From the NCBI GenBank assembly GCA_028749205.1, contig JAQULR010000006.1, positions 6,678 to 70,677 on the forward strand: a stretch of 64,000 nucleotides of DNA. The letters run 5' to 3'. Below are positions 5,156 to 56,481 of this stretch, piece by piece. Position numbers and translations under genes: made by a program. The DNA comes from Acidobacteriota bacterium. Its GTDB lineage: Bacteria > Acidobacteriota > Aminicenantia > Aminicenantales > Saccharicenantaceae. The notes beneath the pieces are model-generated. The model saw only the letters and a program-made list of their open reading frames with translations, was not told where the DNA came from and did no database searches. Each line of letters starts with the position of its first letter. Within the stretch, counting starts at the first letter, position 1.

Positions 5156-5287
5156 GCCATTCAAACTGAGGGGAAAATAAATCATCCTTGAAATCATCTT
5201 AAGAGGTGATAAATTTGCCTTAAATATATATTATTTTGCTATAGTTGTAAAACTGAATATATCTCAAGATTTTCAATTATTTTTGAT

Positions 5288-5342
5288 AAGAAAATCGGGA
5301 GATGATACGATTTTATTAAATCGATTCGTGCCCCTAATTTTC
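5288..5342 (+). repeat. short form (copy S) of the dispersed structured repeat family
   Basis: The sequence AGAAAATCGGGAGATGATACGATTTTATTAAATCGATTCGTGCCCCTAATTTTCC carries the 5' arm (GGGA.ATGA.ACGATTTT) and 3' arm (AAATCG.TTCGTG.CCC + T-rich tail) of long copies A/B, joined by 3 nt. It forms a hairpin followed by a U-rich tract. Confidence 0.6.
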
Positions 5343-5438
5343 CTCTGGAGGAGGAAAATAAGCCAGGTTGGCTTAGATTAGTTACGAATAATCCAGGTCA
5401 TTTATTGGAAGATAATTCTTAAATGAAAGGATAGGGCC

Positions 5439-6746
5439 ATGAACAGGGTAATTTTGTTGGATTTCGAGGAAAAAGACAAAGAATATCTTGAACAGGAAAA
5501 AATAGACACCTTCCTCATCCATACTTCTGATTTCGCCAGCCTGCCTACAATTCTGCCAGAAGCTCAGGCTATTTTTTATCAAATGAACTGGCCGGTAGAA
5601 GAGGAAAATATCCCTACAGGTCTGGCCGAAAAGATCCAGGAAATGGTCACCGACGGGGCGCGAGTTATCTGTTTTATTGGCAAGGGCCATCTTTATCAGT
5701 TAACAGGGGTCATCGGCAATTTTCCAGATATTCATCTTCAGGAATGCCCTCCTGGAGAACAGCTACTGGTTAATCCAGAAACCACCTATAATCTACTCTT
5801 TGAAAAATACTCCAATGACCTGGCTTATATGTATCAACTGCTACCGACTTCTTTTGGAGCGGAGGCCTGGGAAGTTCCGGCTACCAGAAATGATAGCTGG
5901 AAGATTGTGGCTAAAAATTTAGCTGGCTACCCGGTTTCTCTGATTATTAGAAAGGGTCAGGGCTTTATCTGGTTGCTGCCGTGGTTTGGGCAAAATAACA
6001 TAAAGGTGGCCGACTTTATTCTTAAAGACATATTCCCGTTGATGGAGATGAAAGGAAAAGAGTTGGAACAGATAGACTGGATAGATAAAGAAGAGTATCT
6101 GTTCCCGGAAATAAAGGAACTTTTCCTGAAAAAAGAACAAGAAAAGAAAAAATTTGAAGAAAGAATTAAGGAATTAGATGAGCAGATTAAAAACTTACGC
6201 GAAACTCAGCAGGAAGTTTTTAACCGTCTATTAAAGGCTGAAGGACAGGAGTTGAAAGCCGCCGTAGCTCAGGCTTTCAAGTATTTGAATTGGGGAAAAG
6301 TGGTGGATGTCAGTGAATACTGGAAAAATGTCATCAGAGACAAAGAAGAAGATTTCTGGCTGATAGATAATACCGAGCAAACTATTGAGGTCTGTTTGAG
6401 GAAAGAGTTCTTGGTATTGATTATTGTCAGGAGCGGCCGAAACTGGGCTACTGACGATGATTGTATGCTCCTGCAGAGGGTAAAAGGTCGGCGGATGCAG
6501 GAGTTTGACAACACCAAGATGAAAGCTGTCTTAGTAGGGAATTATTTCAACTTGCAGGAAGCCAGATTAAGAAATAATCCCTTTTCTCAGCTCCAGATGG
6601 AAGAGGCAGAAAAAGACGGTAATGGGCTCCTGACTACTTATGAGCTTTTTAAAGCCATCAAGGCCGAAAAAGAAGGTCTGATAAGCAAAGAGGATATTAG
6701 AAGGCAGTTGAAAGAAAAGGCCGGTTTATTGCAATTTTCTTGGTGA
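5439..6746 (+). CDS. hypothetical three-domain protein (alpha/beta N-domain, coiled coil, restriction-endonuclease-like C-domain)
   Basis: 435-aa ORF with no competing frame. It has alternating beta/alpha hydrophobic periodicity at the N-terminus and a KE-rich heptad stretch KKEQEKKKFEERIKELDEQIKNLRETQQE. The C-terminal layout (EEDFWLID ... LVLIIVRSG ... KAVLVGNYF ... GLLTTYELFKAI) resembles Mrr_cat/PD-(D/E)xK folds. No family was recognised with certainty. Confidence 0.7.
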   Translation: MNRVILLDFEEKDKEYLEQEKIDTFLIHTSDFASLPTILPEAQAIFYQMNWPVEEENIPTGLAEKIQEMVTDGARVICFIGKGHLYQLTGVIGNFPDIHLQECPPGEQLLVNPETTYNLLFEKYSNDLAYMYQLLPTSFGAEAWEVPATRNDSWKIVAKNLAGYPVSLIIRKGQGFIWLLPWFGQNNIKVADFILKDIFPLMEMKGKELEQIDWIDKEEYLFPEIKELFLKKEQEKKKFEERIKELDEQIKNLRETQQEVFNRLLKAEGQELKAAVAQAFKYLNWGKVVDVSEYWKNVIRDKEEDFWLIDNTEQTIEVCLRKEFLVLIIVRSGRNWATDDDCMLLQRVKGRRMQEFDNTKMKAVLVGNYFNLQEARLRNNPFSQLQMEEAEKDGNGLLTTYELFKAIKAEKEGLISKEDIRRQLKEKAGLLQFSW

Positions 6747-8893: not shown

Positions 8894-8910
8894 AAAGCTT
8901 TTTTTAATCA

Positions 8911-8938
8911 ACCTGCATTATTTATGAATAATCCAGGT
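8911..8938. repeat. 28-bp palindromic intergenic motif (copy 1)
   Basis: ACCTGCATTATT-TATG-AATAATCCAGGT, with arms complementary at 11 of 12 positions. It matches the copy at 56454 at 26/28 and the copy at 52894 at 24/28 (hand count). Confidence 0.75.
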
Positions 8939-9127: not shown

Positions 9128-9931
9128 ATGATGGCCAGAAAATTCAAGGCGGTTGAATTGAGTTTCACCCGGTTGAGAAAACAATATCTCCGTGGCGAAA
9201 TAAGCCGGGAGCAATTTGCTGACTCTCTCAAGAAATTAAGACTGCTGGATAATGAAGGCCGCTGCTGGATGCTGGGTGCCCAGACAGGACGATGGTACTA
9301 TTATGACGGAAAACAGTGGATTCAGTCCGAATTGCCAAAAGAAAGCCAGGATGGTCTTATTTGTCCGGATTGTTATCATGAAAATAGTCCTCAGGCCAGA
9401 ATCTGTGAGCTCTGTGGGGCTACATTAATAAAAACTTCGACCAAGATGGTCTGTATTAATTGCGGGAATCTCATAGACTACGACCGAAAAGTTTGCCCGT
9501 TATGTGGCATAGAAGTAGTCGGCAAAAGTGATGAACTCTTGACCGAAAAAAGCCAGGTATCTCCCTCCTCTGTTGAAAGCCCGTCAGAAGAGAATATGGC
9601 CTATTTAAAATCGGTTGATAAGATGAGTTTTTTATTTTTCTCAGGTGGCCTGGGGATTTTTTTAGGAGTTCTTTTTGGTCTTATCCTCGGGGTGACAGAT
9701 TTTTTCTCTGGAGTGGTCGCCGGTCTGCCTTCATTTCTTCAAGAGATGCAGGGAACCCTGGTGGGGGCTGTAGTTTTCAGTATTCTTGGTGGCCTGTCTG
9801 GCGTTGTCCTGGTGGCGGCTGCTGGCTTTATTCTGGCCCTGCTAATTAATGGCGCCATCTATTTTTTTGGAGGACCGGGTTTCCATCTTGAGAAGGGCAC
9901 TAAAAGGACTTCCCTGAAGTCGCGGTCATAA
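9128..9931 (+). CDS. GYF_2-like / double zinc-ribbon membrane protein
   Basis: The ORF track starts at TTG 9122, but ATG 9128 is more likely. It has GRWYYYDGKQWIQ (GYF_2-like), CPDCYHEN...CELCG and CINCGN...CPLCG zinc ribbons, and a Gly-rich C-terminal TM region. Confidence 0.7.
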   Translation: MMARKFKAVELSFTRLRKQYLRGEISREQFADSLKKLRLLDNEGRCWMLGAQTGRWYYYDGKQWIQSELPKESQDGLICPDCYHENSPQARICELCGATLIKTSTKMVCINCGNLIDYDRKVCPLCGIEVVGKSDELLTEKSQVSPSSVESPSEENMAYLKSVDKMSFLFFSGGLGIFLGVLFGLILGVTDFFSGVVAGLPSFLQEMQGTLVGAVVFSILGGLSGVVLVAAAGFILALLINGAIYFFGGPGFHLEKGTKRTSLKSRS

Positions 9932-9956
9932 TCTAAATCCTGCCAGCCAACGGAAT

Positions 9957-12260
9957 TCAAGTGGAAAGTTTTATCTTGTTAAGGGCAAAAGCTATCTGGC
10001 CCGGGGATAAGGATTCATCACTGGGGGAATAGAGCACCGGTCTTAAGACTTCAAAGCCATGCCGGCGGAGACGCCTTTCGGTATTCTGGGTAAGAAGACG
10101 GTTTAAAAACACCCCACCGCTTAGGACCACCCGGGAAATGCCCTGTTCTTTTCGGGCCTGAAGAGCCAGTTCCAAGATGACCTGCACCAGAGTCAGATGA
10201 AACTTCATAGCAATTAATTCCGGCCGGATTTTTTTCTGAAGGTCCAGAATGATTTCTCTTATAGCCGGGCTAAAATCTATCAGGTAGGGAGAAGAATCTT
10301 TTTTGATTAAAAACGAGTAAAAAGATTTTACTCGGACTTGAACTGAGGAAGCTGCTGCTTCCAGGCGGGAAGGAGCTTCGGCTTCATATTCGATCCTGGC
10401 AGGGGTTAGACCGCCAAGAAAGGCTACGGCATCGAACAGGCGGCCAACACTCGAAGTTAAGGGGGTGTTAAGTTCCTTATCTATCATCTGAAGGATCGAT
10501 TTCAATCTGTTTTCAGGAATTGTTTTAAGGGCGTCGGTTTCAGGTAGGTTCTGGCCAAAAGCCTTTTTCAGCCAGGCAACAGCCATCCTCCAGGGTTCTC
10601 TGGCGGCAGCGTCTCCTCCTGGGAGAGGAGCGTAGTCAAGGTGGGCATAGCGAAGGTAACCTGAATAGTCGGCAATTAAAAATTCACCTCCCCAGGCCTT
10701 CCCATCATCTCCATAGCCAAAGCCATCGAAGCTTATGCCCAGAAATTTCTGGCCCGGAGCGATCTGATGTTCTATGAGAGGAGCTAAGCTGTGAGCGAAA
10801 TGATGCTGAACCTGGAGGTGAGGAATTCCGAGACTTCTGGCAAAACGACTGCTTCTAAAATCTGGATGGAGGTCGCTGACCACCAGTTCAGGAGTGAAGT
10901 TAAAAAGTTTTCTTAAATGAGCCAGGGTTTCCTCAAAATATCCGAAATTTTGGTAATCATCTAAGTCTCCCAGGAACTGAGAGGTAATGATGTAACCATT
11001 CTTGTATATAGAAATGGTGTTTTTGAGCTCGCCACCGACCGCTAAAATCTGGGCAGAGGACCTCAGTTTTTCCGGTACAGCCTGGGGGAAGGGGACAAAG
11101 CCCCGGGCCCGGCGGAAAAAAAGCAGCCGGCCATTTACAACTTTGATCACTGAATCATCCGCCCTCATGGCTATTTCCCGGTTATGAGTCAGGATGTAGT
11201 CGCATAATTCCGGGCCAATTAGAGTGTCATCCTTGATTATTGGGGCGTCTTTCTGATTGGAGCTGGTAGCCACAATTATCGGAAGATCTTTAAGGAGAAG
11301 ATGATGCAAGGGAGTGTATGGCAGCATGATTCCTACTGTATCCAGGAAAGGGGCAATTTCCGGTAAATCCTTTTTCTTTTGAAGAAGAACAATCGGCCTG
11401 GAGGGCGAGGTCAGCCAGGTTTTCTCTGTTGGGGTCACCTGGGCGTATTCTTTTATCACCTTCAGATCCCGGGCCATCAAAGCCAAGGGTTTAACTTTTC
11501 TTTGTTTTATTTTTCGTAGCCGTTTAATTGCTATAGGGTTAGTAGCGTCACAAGTCAGGTGAAAACCTCCTAGTCCTTTAATGGCCAGGATTTTGCCCTT
11601 TTTTAGCAGTCTGACAGCCTCAGCCAGGCTGTCAGAGATTTTCTTTCCTGTTCGGGTTTCTTTAATAGCAATTTTGGGACCACATTCCGGACAGGCAATT
11701 GGTTGAGCGTGGTAGCGCCTGTCAAGAGGATTTCCATATTCTTTCTGACAGTCCGGGCACATCTTAAAAGCAGCCATAGTGGTTTTGTCCCGGTCGTAAG
11801 GTAGTTCCTGAACGATAGTATATCTTGGCCCACAATTAGTACAGTTGGTAAACGGGTAGCGATAACGCCTTTCTTTGGGATTATCAATTTCCTCAAGGCA
11901 TTCTTGGCAGGTGGCAATGTCTGGTGAGATAAAGACAAATGACTCCTCCTGGGAAGAACGGCTTATAGTGAATTGGTTCAAACCGAGTGGTTCAATTTCC
12001 TGATAACTAACTTCTTCAATTCTGGCCAGAGGAGGAGTCTGAGACCTCAATTGAAGCAGGAACTCATCCAGCAGAGCCTGTTCTTTTTCTAAATGAATTT
12101 CCACTCCCTGTCCGATATTTCTGACAAAACCAGAAAAGCCAAGGCTGGTGGCTAAACGGTAAATAAAAGGCCGAAAACCGACACCCTGAACTGTTCCCCT
12201 GACTATGAGGCGAAAGGCCCGACGACTCATTATCTCCCTGGCCTCTGACTGTAAAGACAT
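9957..12260 (-). CDS. hypF: [NiFe]-hydrogenase maturation carbamoyltransferase HypF
   Basis: Acylphosphatase-like N-terminus (RLIVRGTVQGVGFRPFIY), two CxxC...CxxC zinc-finger pairs, and YrdC-like and Kae1-like domains. The start may be the second ATG at 12230, which forms a TAATG overlap with the queH stop. Confidence 0.93.
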   Translation of the reverse strand: MSLQSEAREIMSRRAFRLIVRGTVQGVGFRPFIYRLATSLGFSGFVRNIGQGVEIHLEKEQALLDEFLLQLRSQTPPLARIEEVSYQEIEPLGLNQFTISRSSQEESFVFISPDIATCQECLEEIDNPKERRYRYPFTNCTNCGPRYTIVQELPYDRDKTTMAAFKMCPDCQKEYGNPLDRRYHAQPIACPECGPKIAIKETRTGKKISDSLAEAVRLLKKGKILAIKGLGGFHLTCDATNPIAIKRLRKIKQRKVKPLALMARDLKVIKEYAQVTPTEKTWLTSPSRPIVLLQKKKDLPEIAPFLDTVGIMLPYTPLHHLLLKDLPIIVATSSNQKDAPIIKDDTLIGPELCDYILTHNREIAMRADDSVIKVVNGRLLFFRRARGFVPFPQAVPEKLRSSAQILAVGGELKNTISIYKNGYIITSQFLGDLDDYQNFGYFEETLAHLRKLFNFTPELVVSDLHPDFRSSRFARSLGIPHLQVQHHFAHSLAPLIEHQIAPGQKFLGISFDGFGYGDDGKAWGGEFLIADYSGYLRYAHLDYAPLPGGDAAAREPWRMAVAWLKKAFGQNLPETDALKTIPENRLKSILQMIDKELNTPLTSSVGRLFDAVAFLGGLTPARIEYEAEAPSRLEAAASSVQVRVKSFYSFLIKKDSSPYLIDFSPAIREIILDLQKKIRPELIAMKFHLTLVQVILELALQARKEQGISRVVLSGGVFLNRLLTQNTERRLRRHGFEVLRPVLYSPSDESLSPGQIAFALNKIKLST

Positions 12261-13500: not shown

Positions 13501-14870
13501 TATTTTACTCCTTGCTCCTTGCCCAAGAAGCCAGAACTCTTCCTGTCTTTTACTATAATTTCGAGTCTTTTTTCAAGCTCTCTTTTAAGGTAAAAATAAG
13601 GGGGTCTTTCAGGGATGGTCTCTTCATAATTAGCAATGACCCAATCTATGAGAAATAAGGCTGGCGGCAGGTTTTCTTGAAAGATTTCATCAATATCTGC
13701 CTCAGAGTTAACAAATCCGCCTTGGGCCAGGTCCAGAGGTGGCAATTCTATGGTAAAGGCAGGAATTTGAAAAAAGGCATAAGCCCAGTCAGCAAAATCT
13801 CCATTGGTCAGATAAAGAGCCGCGGCGGCCCGGCCGGTTTCGTATATCCGGCCATTTACCTGATAAATCAGTTCAGCCATAGCCGCACTTAGCTGCTGGA
13901 ACAGAGGCTCGTCTTCTGTAGCCTGGTCCAGATATCCCCAGGGATAAAGGATGCTCTGGGAAAAACTATGATAGGAGATGGCCGCAGCTAAGTTATGATT
14001 GTGAAAGAAGTTATTAATAGCTCTGGTCTCAGGTTCAGAAAAAGGCTCCAGGCCACGATAATCTGCTGAGGAAGGATTTGGACTGGAACCCAGGCTGTCA
14101 TAGGCCCAGGCAAAAGAATAGTTTCGGTTTAAGTCTACTCCATAAGAGCCATCATAGTTCAGCCGCCGGTTTTTCCTCCAGAGGCGGTAATTCAGGATAG
14201 AATATTGGAGGCCATCGGGATTAACTAAGGGAATTACCCAAATTTCAGCTGAGTCTACCAGAAACTTAATTCGATCATCGCTGGTGTAATTTTCCAAAAG
14301 ATGCTTGCCTATCAAAAGAGGTATCTCCAAGGAAATCCATTCCCGGGCATGATGACCTCCAAGGAAAGTTATTGCGGGCTCGTTTTCTCTTGTAGAAACG
14401 TTATCACTTATTTTTAGAGCGTAGATGTTTCTATTTTCCAGACTCTTTCCAAGGATATAAAGCCTGGTAATAGAAGGATAAGCTCTGACTAAAGCTTGCA
14501 ATTCGGACTCAAGCTCTTTATAAGAGTGGTAAGCTCCATTTAACCCACCCTGCCAGCGAAGTTTAATAGAGTGGCCAGGGCTGATTTGGGGATTAAAGCG
14601 GTGAGTTTCTAAGCTAAAAAAATAGCCGGCCTGTCTGATGCCTTCTAAATGTTTTTTTTCAACCTGAAAATATATTTTCTGACCTTCAACCATTAGCGGA
14701 TCAACAGGAAAGTTCAGGGCAAGATCCCTTAAATCGAGATTTTTATTAAGAGAAATAATTTCTGTATCTGAGAGACCGTTGTCAGTAGAATAGGAAAAAG
14801 ACAAAAAAATTATGACGACTAAAAATATGGGCCTGCTGCCTTTTTTCCCGTTATAGTTATTTCTGGTCAT
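13500..14870 (-). CDS. secreted M14-family zinc carboxypeptidase
   Basis: Signal-like N-terminus. Zinc ligand motif GGHHAREWIS (HxxE), a later SYHSFSQSILYPWGY, and catalytic FTIELPP (TxEL). Confidence 0.85.
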   Translation of the reverse strand: MTRNNYNGKKGSRPIFLVVIIFLSFSYSTDNGLSDTEIISLNKNLDLRDLALNFPVDPLMVEGQKIYFQVEKKHLEGIRQAGYFFSLETHRFNPQISPGHSIKLRWQGGLNGAYHSYKELESELQALVRAYPSITRLYILGKSLENRNIYALKISDNVSTRENEPAITFLGGHHAREWISLEIPLLIGKHLLENYTSDDRIKFLVDSAEIWVIPLVNPDGLQYSILNYRLWRKNRRLNYDGSYGVDLNRNYSFAWAYDSLGSSPNPSSADYRGLEPFSEPETRAINNFFHNHNLAAAISYHSFSQSILYPWGYLDQATEDEPLFQQLSAAMAELIYQVNGRIYETGRAAAALYLTNGDFADWAYAFFQIPAFTIELPPLDLAQGGFVNSEADIDEIFQENLPPALFLIDWVIANYEETIPERPPYFYLKRELEKRLEIIVKDRKSSGFLGKEQGVK

Positions 14871-16135
14871 TTCTTATTCTCTCCTGATGTCTTTCTTAAA
14901 TCAGGGTAAAACTCCAGAGTAATGGAAATTCTTTGATGCTTGAGGTGCTGACCAGAGCCTGTTTCTAAGCCTATAGCCGTTGAGAAACTTAAGGCCATCA
15001 GGTCCGTGCTAATTCCTGAGCCAAAGGTTAGAAAAAAATAGGTAGAAGAAACTTCGGTCATTGGTTGAGGGTCAACCGTTAAACCCAAAAAATAGGGAGT
15101 TGTCCAAAGTCGTCCTAGAAACCTTAATTTTGTCCGGTATTCTATGCCTGTTCCTAACCGGACTACATTGCGGAAATTTCGGGTTTGAGTTTCGCCGAAA
15201 TAAGAAAAAGAATAGTTCTTCCAGGTAAAATAGACTGCCTCCAGATAGCCACTCAGGTTAGGCCTTAAAGTTACTCTGGCCCCGAGCCCCGTAATGAGAG
15301 GCCTTTTAATGATGTCTGAAGCCTGACCAACAATTTCAATGTCAGTTTGAGGGGAATCGTAGTTAAAATTATTCTGCCCGTGGACTTTTCTCTCGTGGGC
15401 AGGAATCAAGCTTAAAGCTACAAATAACCAGTCGGTTAAAATATAGCTCAAGCCGAAAACGGGATAGAATCCTTTAATTTTCTGATAACGATAATCAATC
15501 ATCTTAATATTATCAACAGGCCAGCTTTCTTCCAGATTCCGCTCAAGATGTCCTCTGTACCAAATAAAACTGACGCCAAGGCTCAGCCTTCGATTCAATT
15601 CCCTGGCCAGGCTAAAGGCGTAGTTGGTTTGATGGCCATTTTGCCAGAGGTTCAACTGGTTGTATAAAACCCCCTCTTCAAAATGGTTATAATCCAGACC
15701 AGGTCTGCCATAATTTTCTGTCAGGGCCCAGCCAAAGCCTAAGGTCCAATGACTTATTTTTTGAGACAGCCCGAGATAATCTAACTGCCAACACCTGAAA
15801 GGCAGGTTACCATTAGTTTTTAGCACCCCGGTATTTACCAACCAATATTTGAAAAGCTGAGTCTGATTGAAACTGAGATTTAAACTGAAACTGGTGCCTG
15901 GATTTAGAGAGGTAACGGCCGGACTTACTAGAATTGAGGCTGGACCGACCCTGGCCATCTGACATAAGCCCGAACCTAAAGAAGAGGCAGTTTCCAGGCC
16001 GAAAATATTCCAGCTTCCGAGAGGTGCTTCTTCGGTGTACTGACCAGGTCCAGCTTGAGTCTGACCGAAGGCTGTTGGACTGAGGAGCAGGATTAATAAA
16101 ATAATAGTTTGAAAGCACCTTAGTAATGAGTCCAT
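14867..16135 (-). CDS. outer-membrane beta-barrel protein (hypothetical)
   Basis: The ORF runs to 16183, but the ATG at 16135 gives a clean signal peptide (MDSLLRCFQTIILLILLLSPTAFGQ). The rest has alternating aromatic/Gly beta-strand periodicity. It overlaps the M14 gene by 4 nt. Confidence 0.6.
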   Translation of the reverse strand: MDSLLRCFQTIILLILLLSPTAFGQTQAGPGQYTEEAPLGSWNIFGLETASSLGSGLCQMARVGPASILVSPAVTSLNPGTSFSLNLSFNQTQLFKYWLVNTGVLKTNGNLPFRCWQLDYLGLSQKISHWTLGFGWALTENYGRPGLDYNHFEEGVLYNQLNLWQNGHQTNYAFSLARELNRRLSLGVSFIWYRGHLERNLEESWPVDNIKMIDYRYQKIKGFYPVFGLSYILTDWLFVALSLIPAHERKVHGQNNFNYDSPQTDIEIVGQASDIIKRPLITGLGARVTLRPNLSGYLEAVYFTWKNYSFSYFGETQTRNFRNVVRLGTGIEYRTKLRFLGRLWTTPYFLGLTVDPQPMTEVSSTYFFLTFGSGISTDLMALSFSTAIGLETGSGQHLKHQRISITLEFYPDLRKTSGENKK

Positions 16136-16213
16136 CGCTTTATTATCCTGATTTATCTTAAAAGAATCCAGGATAAATTGCATTATCCCCGAGCTAATAA
16201 TTTATTTCTGGAG

Positions 16214-16367
16214 GAAAACCGGCGCCAGAGACAATTTCAGAAGGCACCAGAAAGCTTTGAACTTCAGGATAGGAATAAATAATAACTGATAGCCTTTCGA
16301 AGTAAAGTTCCGTCTCCTAAAATACAAGAAGCCTGCCTGAAACCGGTTCTTGTACCTTCATTTTTTT
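16214..16367 (+). repeat. diverged long copy (E) of the dispersed structured repeat family
   Basis: It shares ordered blocks with copies A/B/C: GGCACCAGAAAGC, CTGATAGCCTTTCG, GTTCCG, ATACAAGAAG (as in C) and AAACCGGTTCTTGTACCTTCATTTTTTT (cf. AAATCGGTTCGTGTCCCTCATTTTTT). Confidence 0.6.
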
Positions 16368-16524
16368 CAGGTCCAGCTTGTCTTCTCGTTAACAATTGAT
16401 AATCTGGGGACAGATTATTTTTTAGGCATAACCCAGGTTATTACTGGATTAAATATTTTTGGTCTCGGGGTCTTTATTTTTGAGAAAAAAATCGGTATGA
16501 TAAACACAAATTTTAGGTGTGCTT

Positions 16525-22302: not shown

Positions 22303-22424
22303 TGATCCTCCCCGTCTCTTATCTATTTATCATAACCTCTTTTGTTGTTCAAGTCAGTGTATCGGGCTCTTCAGCCAAAAACATGGTATAAATTAGGAGA
22401 GAAATAATCCAGGTTAATAATAGA

Positions 22425-29606: not shown

Positions 29607-30911
29607 ATGAGCGAAATCGTCGACCCAGGTAAAAAGCCAATATCTATAATCCAGGAAATAGAAAGTCAGCTTGAGGACTATCTCCGTCGGCAGAGAGAAG
29701 AAATAGAAAAGGCCTTAGAAGAGAAAATCCAGAAGGAAAGAGAACAAGCCCGCCAGCAGCTTTTGGAAATAGAACAGGCAGTTAAAAAAGAATGGCAATC
29801 TTTAGAAGAATATGGGAACGTCTGGCAGGAATTTGAAGAAAAACGTGACCAGATTCTAGTCAAAATAAGAGAATATCTCCAGCGCATTTTTGATAGGCAG
29901 CAGCAAATCGAAAGCCTGGCCAAAGAGACTTCGGAAGACATTAAAACCATTAATCATCTGGAGGATCAGTTAGAAGAAATGCGCCACAAGTCCATGGAGC
30001 AGGCTGCTTTTTTAAAAAAGAGACTGGAAGAAAAATTTGGCCTCAGAACTGAAAGACCCGAACCGGCTGAAGTTGGAGCTGACCGCATCGACTTGACTCC
30101 TGAGCTGGAGAAGCTCAAAAAGGTAAAAGAACTACTTATTTTAGAAAAAGGGATACCAGTCCAAGAGCCGGCTGAGGTTAATAAAGAAGAGCGGATAGAA
30201 CCGGAGGCTGAAGAGTCTCCGAAAGCCGAACTGGCTGAACAAGAACAGCCAGAACAGAAAGCAGTTGAAACCAATCAAGTAAAACCAGAGGAGTTAAGTC
30301 TAGAAGCTAAGTTAGCTGAAGAAATAAGAAAAAATATAGTTCAAAAACTTGGCAACCTGGAGGAAGTGGTTGAAAAGTTACCAGAAGATTTAAGTTCGGT
30401 TGAAGAAAAAGAAACCCTGAAAGAAATTTCTCCTGGCGAGCTACAAGAGTTCTATCAACAGGAGCCAGCTAATGGGTCTGTTCAGATTGGTTATTATCAA
30501 AAGGATAAAAAATATATTTTAGAGGCTGAAGAGTTATTAATTAGAATGAAAGAGTCAGTTGAGGAAGCTAAGAAACTGAATCATAAACTTACTTTGGTCA
30601 GCGGGGCCAAAGAGCAGTTTTATCTCAAGCAGGAGTTAATTAGCCTTCAAGAAGAGCTCAGACATTATCTCCAGAAAGTGTTAGCAATGGTTGGTAAACA
30701 AAAATTCCGTTTTCCAGCTCTGACCATGGAAATCATCAATGAGAACACCCTGAAAGAACTGTCCGATTTGTTAAGTGTTCAAAACTGGAACTTATCCGAA
30801 GATTTGAACCTATTTGACCAGAAATTGATCGAGCTGACAGCTTCTTTTAAGACTCGAGCGACCCCAGCTTCGATTTATTTTGCCGCCCTCAAAAAAGAAC
30901 TGGAAGCCTGA
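29607..30911 (+). CDS. glutamate-rich coiled-coil protein (hypothetical)
   Basis: 434-aa ORF with long E/K/Q/L heptad stretches and an acidic PE-rich linker. No enzymatic motifs. Confidence 0.65.
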   Translation: MSEIVDPGKKPISIIQEIESQLEDYLRRQREEIEKALEEKIQKEREQARQQLLEIEQAVKKEWQSLEEYGNVWQEFEEKRDQILVKIREYLQRIFDRQQQIESLAKETSEDIKTINHLEDQLEEMRHKSMEQAAFLKKRLEEKFGLRTERPEPAEVGADRIDLTPELEKLKKVKELLILEKGIPVQEPAEVNKEERIEPEAEESPKAELAEQEQPEQKAVETNQVKPEELSLEAKLAEEIRKNIVQKLGNLEEVVEKLPEDLSSVEEKETLKEISPGELQEFYQQEPANGSVQIGYYQKDKKYILEAEELLIRMKESVEEAKKLNHKLTLVSGAKEQFYLKQELISLQEELRHYLQKVLAMVGKQKFRFPALTMEIINENTLKELSDLLSVQNWNLSEDLNLFDQKLIELTASFKTRATPASIYFAALKKELEA

Positions 30912-36490: not shown

Positions 36491-36734
36491 CTTTTTAGCC
36501 TCCAGATTTCCGTGAAACTTTAGGAAGGAAGGATCAGTATATCGCCGGACCTGATTTTTGCCTTGCTGCTTTTGAGCTTGCTCGGAAGCGGAATCAATAT
36601 TCCAGTTAAGAAGCCACCATCCGAACCGATGATGGGATAACCGGTGGTAGATTTCTTCGGCCGGAAGTTTAGGGTTCCAGTCGCTGTTGGCGAACAAATA
36701 AAATTGTGGTAGGAGAAAATATCTCCCTGTGGGC

Positions 36735-36884
36735 GAAAACCTTAAGCTTTAGATTAGTATAGAAATGAAGAGTAAATTCTGTTGAGCTTTTGGAGAGGAA
36801 TTCAGCCTTTTAGAATACAAGGAAATTACAGACCTTAGATCCAAGAGACTTAATTGGCATCGGTTCGTTATTGCCATTTTTTCC
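36735..36884 (+). repeat. diverged long copy (D) of the dispersed structured repeat family
   Basis: It has colinear blocks with copy A: GAAGAGTAAATTCTGTTGAGCTTTTGG (cf. GATGAGTAGGAAATTCTGATAGACTTTCGG), CCTTAGATCCAAGAG (cf. CCTTTAGTCCAGGGAG), and ACTTAA..ATCGGTTCGTT..CCATTTTTTCC (cf. ACTTAAATCGGTTCGTGTCCCTCATTTTTTCTC). Confidence 0.55.
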
Positions 36885-52422: not shown

Positions 52423-52674
52423 TAAGATATTTCAGGAATCCTGAAAATTTTATGGCTATATTTTGGTTATCATATTTGACTGAAGCAAAAAACTGAGGTT
52501 GAGTTTCTGGCAAGCTTTGACCGCAAGAATTCATAAATATCAGGGCTGAAAAGGATTGAAGCCCAAAATGGGCAGGGGAGGACTCTGGATTTGATATTTT
52601 CAATTAGACCATCCAATCAAACCTGCGTTATTCGTAAAACAGAAAATGTCTCGAGAGTTTTAACTAACATTGAT

Positions 52675-52856
52675 GAGAAAATCGGGACATGAGACGATTT
52701 TCTCAGGCATTAGAAAGCCTGTGCTTTAACCGAGAGATGAGTAGGAAATTCTGATAGACTTTCGGTGCGGGGTTCCGCCTTCTACGAGACGAGTATGTTA
52801 CGGCCTTTAGTCCAGGGAGGCTGCACTTAAATCGGTTCGTGTCCCTCATTTTTTCT
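52675..52856 (+). repeat. long copy (A) of the dispersed structured repeat family
   Basis: The outer 17-position stem GGGACATGAGACGATTT (52684-700) / AAATCGGTTCGTGTCCC (52829-45) has 14 WC pairs, 2 G-U pairs and 1 mismatch, and is followed by TCATTTTTTCTC. By hand alignment it differs from copy B by 16 substitutions and no indels over about 167 nt. Confidence 0.8.
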
Positions 52857-52893
52857 CAACAAAAATCTGCCAGCTCCGTTATAAGGTAGGTTA

Positions 52894-52921
52894 ACCTGGA
52901 TTATTTGTGAATAATTCAAGT
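52894..52921. repeat. 28-bp palindromic intergenic motif (copy 2)
   Basis: ACCTGGATTATT-TGTG-AATAATTCAAGT, with arms complementary at 10/12. A left half-site, ACCTGCGTTATT, lies at 52621-52632 on the other side of repeat copy A. Confidence 0.7.
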
Positions 52922-53262
52922 CAAACCGAAAAAGCCTTAAGAAAAATATCTTATTTCTGACAAGATATTTGTCAATAGAAATTTTTTTGCAAGCCAAAAG
53001 TTATTAGCCGGTAGCCCTTGCTTAAAGCTTCTAATGAGTTAGGGGAGCAAATATCAGGTGCTTTCTGGTGTTTAGTGACCAACCTTGCCAGATGGTCTTC
53101 TAAGAGATTTGTCCAGGCCGAGTTATTTAGATGCTTGGGAGTATTTTCTTCTGGTTGAGGGTGAATGATAATCATATTTTGCCAAAAGCTCTTGTTTTAA
53201 ATCTGACAAAGAAATAAGATTTAAAATTAATGGTCAGATGGCTTAGTGATAAGGAGGATAAG

Positions 53263-53712
53263 ATGAAGAGAAAATTATCCTTGTTTGTGGTGATTCTTTT
53301 ACTGTTTTCAATCGCCCAGGTTCAAGCTCAACAAAAAAAGTTTGGGCTCGGTATCATTCTGGGAGAGCCAACCGGTGTTATTGCCAAATACTGGACCAGC
53401 AATCGCACCGCCTTTGATGTTGCCGGTTCCTGGTCATTTTCTGGCGAGAATGCTTTTCATATTCACGGCGATTATCTTTTTCACAGCTTCATCGGAGTAG
53501 AAAAGGGTAAGTTGCCATTTTATTATGGAATTGGAGCTCGCTTAAACCTGCAAGATAAAACCAGATTTGGTATTAGAATTCCAGTCGGCTTGAGCTACAT
53601 GTTTGAAAAGACTCCACTTGACATATTTTTAGAAATCGGTCCGGTCATGGATTTGGTTCCAGATACAGAATTTCATGTTCTCGGTTTTATAGGCATCCGC
53701 TATTATTTCTGA
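53263..53712 (+). CDS. small (8-strand-size) outer-membrane beta-barrel protein
   Basis: Start trimmed to the ATG behind the AAGGAGG RBS. It has a signal peptide MKRKLSLFVVILLLFSIAQVQAQ, alternating beta-strand pattern, and a C-terminal aromatic signature GIRYYF. Confidence 0.7.
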   Translation: MKRKLSLFVVILLLFSIAQVQAQQKKFGLGIILGEPTGVIAKYWTSNRTAFDVAGSWSFSGENAFHIHGDYLFHSFIGVEKGKLPFYYGIGARLNLQDKTRFGIRIPVGLSYMFEKTPLDIFLEIGPVMDLVPDTEFHVLGFIGIRYYF

Positions 53713-53890
53713 TTATTGGGACATGATACGATTTTCCCACGCACCAGAAAGCCTGTGCTTTAGCCCAGGGATGAGTAGGAAATTCTGATAGACTTTCGGT
53801 GCGGGGTTCCGCCTTCTACAACGCGAGGACGTTACGGCCTTTAGTCCATGGAGGCTTCACTTAAATCGGTTCGTGTCCCTCGTTTCCCCA
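53711..53890 (+). repeat. long copy (B) of the dispersed structured repeat family
   Basis: It starts at the stop codon of the OMP gene and is near-identical to copy A, including the terminal arms GGGACATGATACGATTT / AAATCGGTTCGTGTCCC. Confidence 0.8.
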
Positions 53891-53984
53891 GGCACCAACT
53901 TTTTTATAAGTGATAATTAAAAACATCAAGACATATTCAGTTTTAGGAATAAGGTAGACTATAATCTGGGGTTTAGGCAACTCG

Positions 53985-54140
53985 CCAAAAATTTTCCATA
54001 AAACAGAAAGCCCTATCATTTAGTTCAGAAATCAATGGAAAATTCTGATAGGCTTTCAGCGCGGCGTTCCGCCTGTTACCATACAAGAAGGTGGTTGTCC
54101 TTAGCCGGGTGGACTTTGCTTAAAGATAAGAGAGGTAACT
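53985..54140 (+). repeat. diverged long copy (C) of the dispersed structured repeat family
   Basis: Its core GGAAAATTCTGATAGGCTTTCAGCGCGGCGTTCCGCC aligns with A/B GGAAATTCTGATAGACTTTCGGTGCGGGGTTCCGCC. The flanking blocks AGAAAGCC and CTTAAA are conserved, but the outer arms differ. Confidence 0.65.
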
Positions 54141-54247
54141 TTAACCTATGCTGACCTATGGGATAAGACCAATTTAAAAAAATTAGTAGAAATTTGCCGG
54201 AAAATGATTAAAATTGTTGGGAACCGAAAGACCCGAGGAGGCAATCA

Positions 54248-56299: not shown

Positions 56300-56453
56300 G
56301 GGATCAAGTCTGGAGCAAAAAATCAGCCGGTTCCAGGCTAGCCATATCTGGGAAAGAGCAGGGAAGAGCTTGCTCCGATTACCTGATAAATATGGCTGGC
56401 AGGAACTTTTAAAGAGCAGTGATTTCTAAGTATGAACTATGAATAATCGTTAA

Positions 56454-56481
56454 ACCTGCTTTATTCATGAATAATCCAGGT
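56454..56481. repeat. 28-bp palindromic intergenic motif (copy 3)
   Basis: ACCTGCTTTATT-CATG-AATAATCCAGGT. An extra half-site, GAATAATCGT, lies at 56441-50. It is about 100 nt upstream of the tRNA-Arg(CCG) promoter. Confidence 0.75.

Follow-up and report, generated by a model that had tools for sequence, protein, structure and literature searches.

A lineage-restricted repeat family of Candidatus Saccharicenans, probably mosaic and MITE/BIME-like

Introduction

A small OMP gene of Candidatus Saccharicenans (Aminicenantes) is bracketed by two directly repeated sequences, A and B, with a third related sequence, C, further downstream. The arrangement raises the question of whether the repeat represents a conserved structured RNA, a pair of recombination sites that make the gene an excisable cassette, or an ordinary kind of mobile intergenic sequence. 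To answer it, we analyzed the whole 64-kb stretch of DNA that contains the locus (hereafter, the window) and compared it with the orthologous sites in related genomes. The reading that we favor, with a probability of about 0.7, is that A, B and C belong to a small, lineage-specific family whose members are intergenic, non-coding and non-autonomous, with a mosaic, MITE/BIME-like organization.

Results

Copies and modules of the repeat

Copy A occupies positions 52684–52845 of the + strand, with arms at 52684–52700 and 52829–52845 and the interior at approximately 52702–52828; its stem is extended by an A-run (52675–52683) and a T-run (52846–52857). Copy B (53718–53879, +) has arms at 53718–53734 and 53863–53879 that enclose a 124-nt interior (53736–53859). 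The 17-nt arms are paired at 16 of 17 positions in each of the two copies. Over 52681–52851 of A and 53715–53885 of B, 154 of 171 positions are identical in an ungapped alignment. The preliminary description was thus right that no indels separate A from B, but it counted 16 substitutions over about 167 nt where there are 17 mismatches over 171.

Copy C (53992–54146, +), previously taken for a diverged third copy, is indeed related to A and B, albeit more weakly, with 72% identity over an 81-nt core (54012–54092; blastn E = 4e-8). It represents a subtype that lacks the arms and ends in a distinct 3′ tail. Orthologs of C are found in L147, L148 and L006, and the copy is conserved in its 5′ half and decayed in its 3′ half. 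All three previously described copies are real, but the window also holds three that were missed, D, E and F. Copy D (36712–36884, +), located between a hutU-like gene (+) and a convergent gene for a 1403-aa activase (−), is 58% identical to A and has lost its left arm, while the right arm and T-run remain recognizable. In copy F (16210–16368, +), the arms (16221–16238 and 16339–16356) are paired at 13 of 18 positions, and there is a 29-nt internal deletion relative to the ortholog in L174. Copy E is hairpin-only, with arms at 5297–5313 and 5318–5334 (−17.1 kcal/mol), and is embedded with flanking small palindromes in a 158-nt block (5265–5422, +) that has an imperfect 6-nt direct repeat, TCTCAA/TCTTAA. 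All six copies lie on the + strand, which is the G-rich strand throughout the window. With up to three mismatches allowed, the two arm motifs matched 6 and 5 times, compared with chance expectations of 0.08 and 0.20.

These copies suggest a modular construction. The first module would be an imperfect palindrome of about 40–60 nt with arms GGGACATGAKACGATTT and AAATCGGTTCGTGTCCC, preceded by an A-run at the 5′ side and followed by a T-run at the 3′ side; the second, an optional 124-nt interior placed exactly within the palindrome loop; and the third, companion small palindromes. The modules appear to combine into mosaic blocks of about 160–300 bp that would be gained by or lost from intergenic DNA. 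Among the companions is a second repeat family, the 29-nt palindrome ACCTGSATTATTYATGAATAATCCAGGT. One copy marks the right edge of the A-bearing block (52893–52921, no strand assigned), and further copies lie at 5384–5406, 8910–8938, 22401–22421 and 56453–56481; this family accompanies the repeat blocks.

The copies have no coding capacity, as stop codons interrupt all six frames and no ORF is common to the copies. A 48-aa ORF that overlaps the element had no matches in the protein database, and a small peptide encoded by C was considered and rejected because its 39-aa ORF is frameshifted or missing in the orthologs. No conserved promoter hexamers were detected within the element on either strand. 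Copies are found at divergent promoters and gene 3′ ends alike, next to genes for OMP, FabH, an Hdr-like protein, HutU and a tRNA, which share no functional theme. A link to amidohydrolase genes was considered, as A and F are each situated in a divergent region, and was dropped because the neighbors of F encode an unknown protein and FabH.

Presence, absence and decay among relatives

Copy A is carried by a 297-bp block (52624–52920, +) that has a perfect 7-bp direct repeat, TCAAACC, on either side (52617–52623 and 52921–52927). This block is absent from L148 and L147, each of which has one copy of the TCAAACC target; the spacing between promoter and palindrome in the outgroup L003, L004, L010 and L011 was also used as evidence of the insertion. 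The terminal inverted repeats of the block itself are weak (11/15, by inspection). At the B site, L147 lacks exactly the 124 nt of the interior, so that its hairpin loop reads ACGATTTT joined directly to CTTAAATCGG, with no target duplication and with flanks about 98% identical. The hairpins that follow the OMP gene in L147, L148 and L006 are all hairpin-only or rearranged: the one in L148 has inverted arms, three in number, at the same site, and the one in L006 retains about 25 nt of the 3′ end of the interior. The whole E block is absent from L172 and L173. L174 has copy F, which L171 and L172 lack, but the insertion at this site is not a clean one. No target duplication was found around the arms of A, B or E or at the indel of the B interior.

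Orthologous copies decay. Copy F and its L174 ortholog are about 70% identical between flanks of about 88% identity (both counted by eye from the alignment), and the 3′ half of C is 56–71% identical to its counterpart in L147, compared with about 85–90% for coding DNA. Copy C occupies the same locus in four genomes. In L006, its 5′ half shows 77% identity within a spacer that otherwise cannot be aligned, which hints at either constraint or horizontal spread. Furthermore, a 40-nt core (AAATTCTGATAG.CTTTCGGTGCGGGGTTCCGCCTTCTAC) is nearly identical in this genome and in UBA1061, although orthologous proteins of the two are only about 65% identical.

The majority of Saccharicenans genomes lack the element. 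Across genome contigs, the exact core pattern was found in UBA1061 and in one chance match only; a gapped pattern yielded at least 117 matching stretches, essentially all of them due to chance, and a C-type pattern was found in the L006 genome only. The matches of a metagenome scan were confined to this species, the copy in UBA1061 and a single chance match in coding DNA, and two scans of viral sequences gave no match. The family appears to be low in copy number and is confined to a few Saccharicenans lineages.

The repeat as a neighbor of the OMP gene

The OMP gene (53263–53712, +), of the DUF3996/BAPKO_0422 type, is a conserved syntenic gene that lies outside the repeat. Copy B does not begin exactly at its stop codon, as had been stated; the arm starts 6 nt past the TGA (53710–53712). 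Likewise, the placement of C in the leader of the Hdr-like gene is doubtful, given that C lies upstream of a promoter-like block, TAGAAA-16-TAAAAT (54187–54214, +), which precedes the Hdr-like gene in all relatives.

The hairpin right behind the OMP stop codon probably acts as an intrinsic terminator of the OMP gene, potentially a bidirectional one, and would have been co-opted for this role. This suggestion is drawn from predicted folding, in which the hairpin-only forms reach −17 to −24 kcal/mol (z of −3.3 to −6), and from canonical terminators found at the same place after the OMP gene in distant relatives. The U-tracts of the hairpin are interrupted (UCGUUUCCCC, UAAUUUUCC), and a simple terminator scanner made no call.

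Folding of the repeat

The preliminary description regarded the repeat as unrecognised, which is borne out by Rfam 15: no copy matched at the gathering score, and only noise appeared at E ≤ 10. Over the whole window, the gathering score was reached by two tRNAs alone, and the best match in the region, DUF805, scored 20 bits, whereas its gathering score is 51. A hammerhead-like core was rejected, as CUGAUAG...GAAAG departs from the consensus CUGANGA and Rfam was negative. The 17-position terminal stem described earlier is genuine and appears in the minimum free energy (MFE) folds of both A and B; the previously noted GCGG-GGTT-CCGC hairpin and TCATTTTTT tail can likewise be found in the sequence.

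The further proposal, that compensatory changes point to a conserved RNA or ssDNA structure, finds no support in interior stability, consensus folding or covariation. Folded alone, the interiors of A and B are no more stable than shuffled sequences (z = −0.18 and −1.26, respectively), the MFE folds of the two copies differ, and the fold of copy D has a z of +0.83. The RNAalifold consensus of nine copies amounts to −1.45 kcal/mol. In the best hand-built helices, comprising 23 candidate pairs, 76% of positions are paired, compared with 77.3% in shuffles, with one double change; an all-against-all helix scan yielded 4-bp candidates only. The three helices proposed earlier give a weak signal that was equaled in 11–32 of 500 shuffles and falls within the stated false-positive range of the tool; one of them, UAGA/UCUA versus UAGG/CCUG, requires a 3-nt register shift, and another reflects a one-sided change. 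A candidate pseudoknot, UUUUCC/GGAAAA, was dismissed as a mere U-run opposite an A-run, the register of which slips between copies. The structured-RNA reading fails: the interior folds no better than shuffles, the copies have next to no common fold, covariation does not exceed expectation, and orthologs diverge more quickly than the sequence around them. What looks like RNA structure is essentially due to the 17-nt inverted arms.

Discussion

A mosaic MITE-like family

Prokaryotic MITEs are typically shorter than 500 bp, with terminal inverted repeats (TIRs) of about 4–30 bp, direct repeats around young copies and transcripts that form stable stem-loops, and they are served in trans by the transposase of a related autonomous IS (PMC10969869). 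The architecture of the present repeats fits this published description, which we count in favor of the MITE-like reading: elements of 160–190 nt and blocks of 158–297 nt contain no ORF, the 17-nt arms resemble TIRs in length and pairing, and the dispersed copies are polymorphic, with A, the B interior, E and F each missing from at least one close relative. Direct observations comprise the multiple copies, their presence or absence at orthologous positions, a single clean target duplication of 7 bp and the decay of orthologs. The preliminary description had named presence/absence polymorphism together with target-site duplication as the marks of a plain MITE, and this is largely what the comparison revealed. 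We infer that the blocks would be mobilized in trans by a transposase encoded elsewhere, whereas the interior might spread or be lost either with the whole element or through gene conversion or deletion between homologous arms.

Several observations sit uneasily with a simple MITE. The 7-bp duplication flanks the 297-bp block rather than the 17-nt arms, the B-interior indel is devoid of a duplication, and the F site is not clean. The six copies share one strand, a bias that a DDE-type MITE would not obviously produce, and the 40-nt core is far better preserved in UBA1061 than the proteins are. No transposase or recombinase, and no autonomous partner, was found among the window ORFs that were scanned or carried precomputed gene tables; RAYT, TnpA/TnpB and integrase genes were likewise not seen in the window.

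Alternative explanations

Paralogous functional non-coding RNAs, that is, duplicated sRNA genes or cis-acting 5′- or 3′-UTR elements, with the terminal stem doubling as a terminator, are an unlikely but not negligible explanation. They would account for the single strand of all copies and their co-orientation with adjacent + strand genes, for the G·U pairs that make the + strand hairpin more stable than that of the − strand (−23.7 vs −16.7 kcal/mol for L147B and −66.7 vs −55 kcal/mol for A), for the core common to distant genomes and the four-genome conservation of the C locus, and for the weak covariation hint in the three helices. Yet the interior gains no stability over shuffles, a consensus fold and excess covariation are both absent, the arms are not maintained while the F orthologs and the 3′ half of C outpace their flanks in decay, the L148 hairpin is inverted in place, the adjoining genes have no common theme, and most Saccharicenans genomes do without the element. 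Far less credible is the notion that A and B are recombination sites, either integron-attC-like or plain direct repeats, and that the OMP gene is an excisable cassette. Direct repeats do bracket one small gene, with B abutting its stop codon, but the gene order amidohydrolase-amidohydrolase/OMP/Hdr-like/SNase is retained without the repeat in at least six Saccharicenans genomes (L003, L004, L010, L011, L013 and L014), and this synteny already refutes the cassette proposed in the preliminary description. In addition, A is a recent insertion missing from the closest relatives, which retain the OMP gene; the same-species contigs L144–L146 all retain A-OMP-B; the other copies are dispersed among housekeeping genes; the window has no integrase; and the attC core sites RYYYAAC/GTTRRRY were not seen at the arm ends by inspection.

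Slightly less probable than functional RNAs is a mobile interior: the 124-nt module would enter and leave the single-stranded loop of the palindrome without target duplication, making the hairpin a target rather than a terminal repeat. Candidates for such a module are PATE-like derivatives of IS200/IS605-type (HUH/Y1) elements and other hairpin-targeting elements. IS200/IS605-derived PATEs insert 3′ of a fixed short motif without duplicating the target, bear similar subterminal hairpins and go with a Y1 transposase elsewhere in the genome. This scenario agrees with the exact 124-nt presence or absence within the loop, free of duplication and between nearly identical flanks, with hairpin-only copies at several sites, with (A)TTTT|C at the start of every interior copy, the (A)TTTT preceding it, with the uniform orientation on the G-rich strand and with two hairpins that have similar RGCC...GGCU stems near both interior ends (by inspection). 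The TTTT belongs to the arm, however, so its recurrence may be due to homology and not to the choice of a target; the hairpins at the interior ends are poorly conserved, with large loops, unlike those at IS200/IS605 ends; the L006 hairpin, with the last ~25 nt of the interior left in place, looks as if it had been deleted internally; the window has no TnpA/TnpB gene; and gene conversion between the 20–25-nt identical arms explains the same indel. We consider it improbable, to the same degree, that the interior is a self-contained, strand-specific element capable of precise loop insertion and excision without duplication, possibly mobilized as ssDNA by an HUH enzyme; in that event, the 40-nt core and the 5′ half of C would be a functional protein- or RNA-recognition site.

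Significance and comparison with known systems

On the favored reading, that of a mosaic MITE/BIME-like family, the repeats are commonplace junk or semi-junk DNA of bacteria rather than a new structured RNA. This undescribed family belongs to an uncultured phylum (Aminicenantes/Saccharicenans). Comparison with orthologous empty sites shows the reshaping of intergenic DNA by these elements, which provide a gene with a terminator-like hairpin, add 297 bp to a divergent promoter region and become nested within each other. In practice, the family causes assembly breaks and false-positive 'structured RNA' calls, and could serve for strain typing of Saccharicenans populations in anaerobic digesters. 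A major question would arise only if the interior turned out to be an independent loop-targeting element.

Transposition by Y1 enzymes makes no target duplication, whereas one insertion described here has a 7-bp duplication. REP/REPIN elements, which are mobilized by RAYT transposases (PMC3116915, PMC3337134), resemble the present family as short extragenic imperfect palindromes (here, the 29-nt palindrome and the 40–60-nt hairpin) that form hairpin doublets and lineage-specific populations, possibly with a strand bias; they differ in their conserved 5′ tetranucleotides and RAYT genes, neither of which was seen in the window. The terminator-embedded aptamer of the HMP-PP/thiS riboswitch (PMC6478431) offers another parallel, extra sequence inside a terminator-like stem, but the interior described here is much larger, has no association with gene function, no conserved fold and no covariation, and occurs at divergent promoters as well as at gene 3′ ends.

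The BIMEs of E. coli are mosaics of REP palindromes. The Saccharicenans blocks share with them, and with the pneumococcal SPRITE, BOX and RUP repeats, terminator-like palindromes, several small repeat types bunched or nested in intergenic regions, and variable mosaics; the sequences are unrelated, the phylum is another one, and here the apparent copy number is low and the lineages few. The pneumococcal repeats are clustered and inserted into one another (PMC10969869). QMITE2 of Coxiella, with direct repeats of 7–9 bp, TIRs of 23–29 bp and a core of 113–145 bp (PMC10969869), differs in that here the duplication flanks a larger, 297-bp mosaic block, there is no known parent IS, and the interior can be present or absent within an otherwise intact hairpin. 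In other respects, the likeness is close: both are shorter than 500 bp, intergenic and non-coding, the family described here has inverted arms of 17–25 nt around a core of about 124 nt and a predicted transcript that folds into a long hairpin, and one young insertion is flanked by a 7-bp direct repeat; older copies decay.

Extent and structure of the repeat family

Copies A and B of the repeat, on either side of the small outer-membrane-protein (OMP) gene, are genuine relatives: they align without gaps (52681-52851 and 53715-53885), with 154 of 171 positions identical. Copy C contributes an 81-nt core at 54012-54092 with 72% identity. The preliminary description had recognized these three copies and, for A and B, a terminal stem of 17-nt inverted arms (GGGACATGAGACGATTT / AAATCGGTTCGTGTCCC), which both MFE folds contain; it had overlooked three + strand members in the window: F (16210-16368), D (36712-36884), whose left arm is gone, and E, a hairpin-only copy with a 4-nt loop between its arms (5297-5313 and 5318-5334). 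At three mismatches or fewer, the two arms match six and five times, respectively, against 0.08 and 0.20 expected. A search of Rfam 15, as proposed in that description, found no family matching the repeat.

All six copies lie on the G-rich + strand, and the genes are split about evenly between strands. Cumulative GC skew climbs almost monotonically over positions 1-64000, the + strand being G-rich throughout. The window also encodes three conserved ORFs of ~435 aa with no Pfam match (5439-6746, 14867-16183 and 29607-30911), two of which directly adjoin copies E and F.

The apparent structure of the element is that of its inverted arms, because the interiors are no more stable than shuffles and there is no consensus fold; none of the reading frames in the copies is open or shared. 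Whole elements were more stable than shuffled sequences (z = -3.5 for A and -2.6 for B), an excess that disappeared for the 127-nt interiors alone (z = -0.18 and -1.26). The folds of A and B differ, RNAalifold on nine copies gave a consensus of -1.45 kcal/mol with eight pairs, and an all-against-all helix scan returned only 4-bp candidates. The best hand-built helices had 76% of cells paired, compared with 77.3% in shuffles, and a single double change. The three helices for which compensatory changes had been claimed gave a weak signal, 11-32 of 500 shuffles being equally good, which falls within the tool's stated false-positive range for unconstrained related sequences; one of them requires a 3-nt register shift. 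A conserved structured RNA is thus unsupported.

The OMP locus in related genomes

The window belongs to Candidatus Saccharicenans (Aminicenantes), as judged by the relatives of its Hdr-like protein. In six related loci (L003, L004, L010, L011, L013 and L014), two amidohydrolase genes (-) are followed by the DUF3996/BAPKO_0422-type OMP gene (+; 53263..53712 in the window), the Hdr-like gene (+) and an SNase gene (+), and none of the six contains the repeat. Because this order is kept without the repeat, the OMP gene is an ordinary resident gene, and A and B do not delimit a recombination or excision cassette, as had been suggested. The same six genomes carry canonical terminators 3' of the OMP gene. 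A promoter-like block just 5' of the Hdr-like gene is kept in all relatives and lies downstream of C in the window (54187-54214), so that C is probably outside the Hdr leader, to which it had been assigned.

The spacer that separates the OMP gene from the amidohydrolase operon contains a palindromic block (AAAAATATCTTATTTCTGACAAGATATTTGTCAA, 52943-52976) conserved across Saccharicenans (seen also in L003, L004, L005, L010, L011, L147 and L148). On the - strand of this block, TTGACA-16-TAAGAT matches a promoter at 10/12 positions; should this be the amidohydrolase promoter, the block containing copy A would lie antisense inside the operon's 5' leader. The amidohydrolase-OMP spacer is an indel hot spot. 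In L147, it has an unrelated GC-rich insertion of ~230 nt (about 2440-2670), absent from the window and L148.

Presence and absence of individual copies

Contigs of close relatives, with 82-91% nucleotide or protein identity, served for base-level comparisons. Copy A lies within a 297-bp block (52624-52920) with a perfect 7-bp duplication, TCAAACC, on both sides. The block is absent from L147 and L148, each with a single target copy, and in more distant genomes the conserved palindrome lies a short distance from the amidohydrolase start; by these comparisons, the A block is an insertion in the window's lineage.

At the site of copy B, L147 has the hairpin alone (ACGATTTT|CTTAAATCGG), lacking exactly the 124-nt interior (53736-53859) with no duplication, and the flanks of this indel are ~98% identical, compared with a typical ~85-90%. 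L006 has a hairpin whose interior is reduced to its final ~25 nt, and L148 a rearranged hairpin with arms in inverted orientation. The latter (GCA_964496565.1, 6228-6320) comprises three arms, an L-type followed by an inverted R'-L' pair, which points to template switching or a second insertion as the source of the rearranged palindrome. A ~400-nt tract around the B hairpin (53593-53992) is 96-100% identical to L147, compared with ~75-90% for adjacent coding DNA. It may have recombined recently, or the hairpin and the TATAAT-containing spacer (53957-53971) may be under strong constraint.

Copy C occupies the same site in L147, L148 and L006; identity is 77-93% over the conserved 5' half and drops to 54-61% over the decayed 3' half. 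In L006 (STD1_65), ~700 nt of AT-rich non-coding DNA (9270-9960), with no counterpart in the window, separates the C-type copy from the Hdr-like promoter block. Copy F is present in L174 and absent from L171 and L172; the orthologues are ~70% identical by eye-count from the alignment, with degenerate arms, and a 29-nt hairpin retained in L174 is gone from the window copy. The 158-nt E block (5265-5422) is absent from L172/L173. Beyond this small clade of close relatives, one copy was found, in UBA1061, just 3' of a gene's stop codon and with a decayed right arm; its 40-nt core is almost identical to that in the window despite ~65% protein identity between the genomes. The viral sequences scanned gave no match.

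A second mini-repeat and the origin of the blocks

The window has five occurrences of a 29-nt palindrome (ACCTGSATTATTYATGAATAATCCAGGT), with zero expected: one closing the A block on the right (52893-52921), where a half-copy marks the left end; one within the E block (5384-5406); one at 22401-22421; and two standing alone at 8910-8938 and 56453-56481, sites for which L171 and L148 have no copy at the orthologous position. Its 11-nt core has a single match, in L010, in ~350 kb of other Saccharicenans loci, the remaining matches being confined to same-species contigs L144 and L169. This distribution suggests a second REP-like mini-repeat, specific to the species, that co-occurs with the hairpin blocks, which hold additional small hairpins.

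The most likely explanation is a family of mosaic, non-autonomous repeats whose mobility is supplied in trans. For the blocks, a DDE-type enzyme is suggested by the 7-bp duplication; the window ORFs that were scanned or have precomputed gene tables yielded no transposase. The interior would come and go with the element, or its gain or loss would involve the identical 20-25-nt arms, by gene conversion or deletion between them. On a minority reading, the interior is itself an independent, strand-specific, loop-targeting element, kept in play by the + strand bias, the UBA1061 core and the exact B-interior indel taken together. The hairpin 3' of the OMP gene is most plausibly that gene's putative terminator, given its stable stem, its A-run and T-run, and its position where relatives have canonical terminators.

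The repeat is thus confirmed and extended. The preliminary description had named target-site duplications with presence/absence polymorphism as grounds for calling it a MITE, and on that basis we reclassify the element as a MITE-like repeat. The bunching and nesting of small palindromic repeats resembles E. coli BIMEs. Pneumococcal SPRITE/BOX/RUP clusters are similar in that several small palindromic repeats are bunched and nested, and the arm, core and direct-repeat dimensions of QMITE2 match those of the element described here (PMC10969869).
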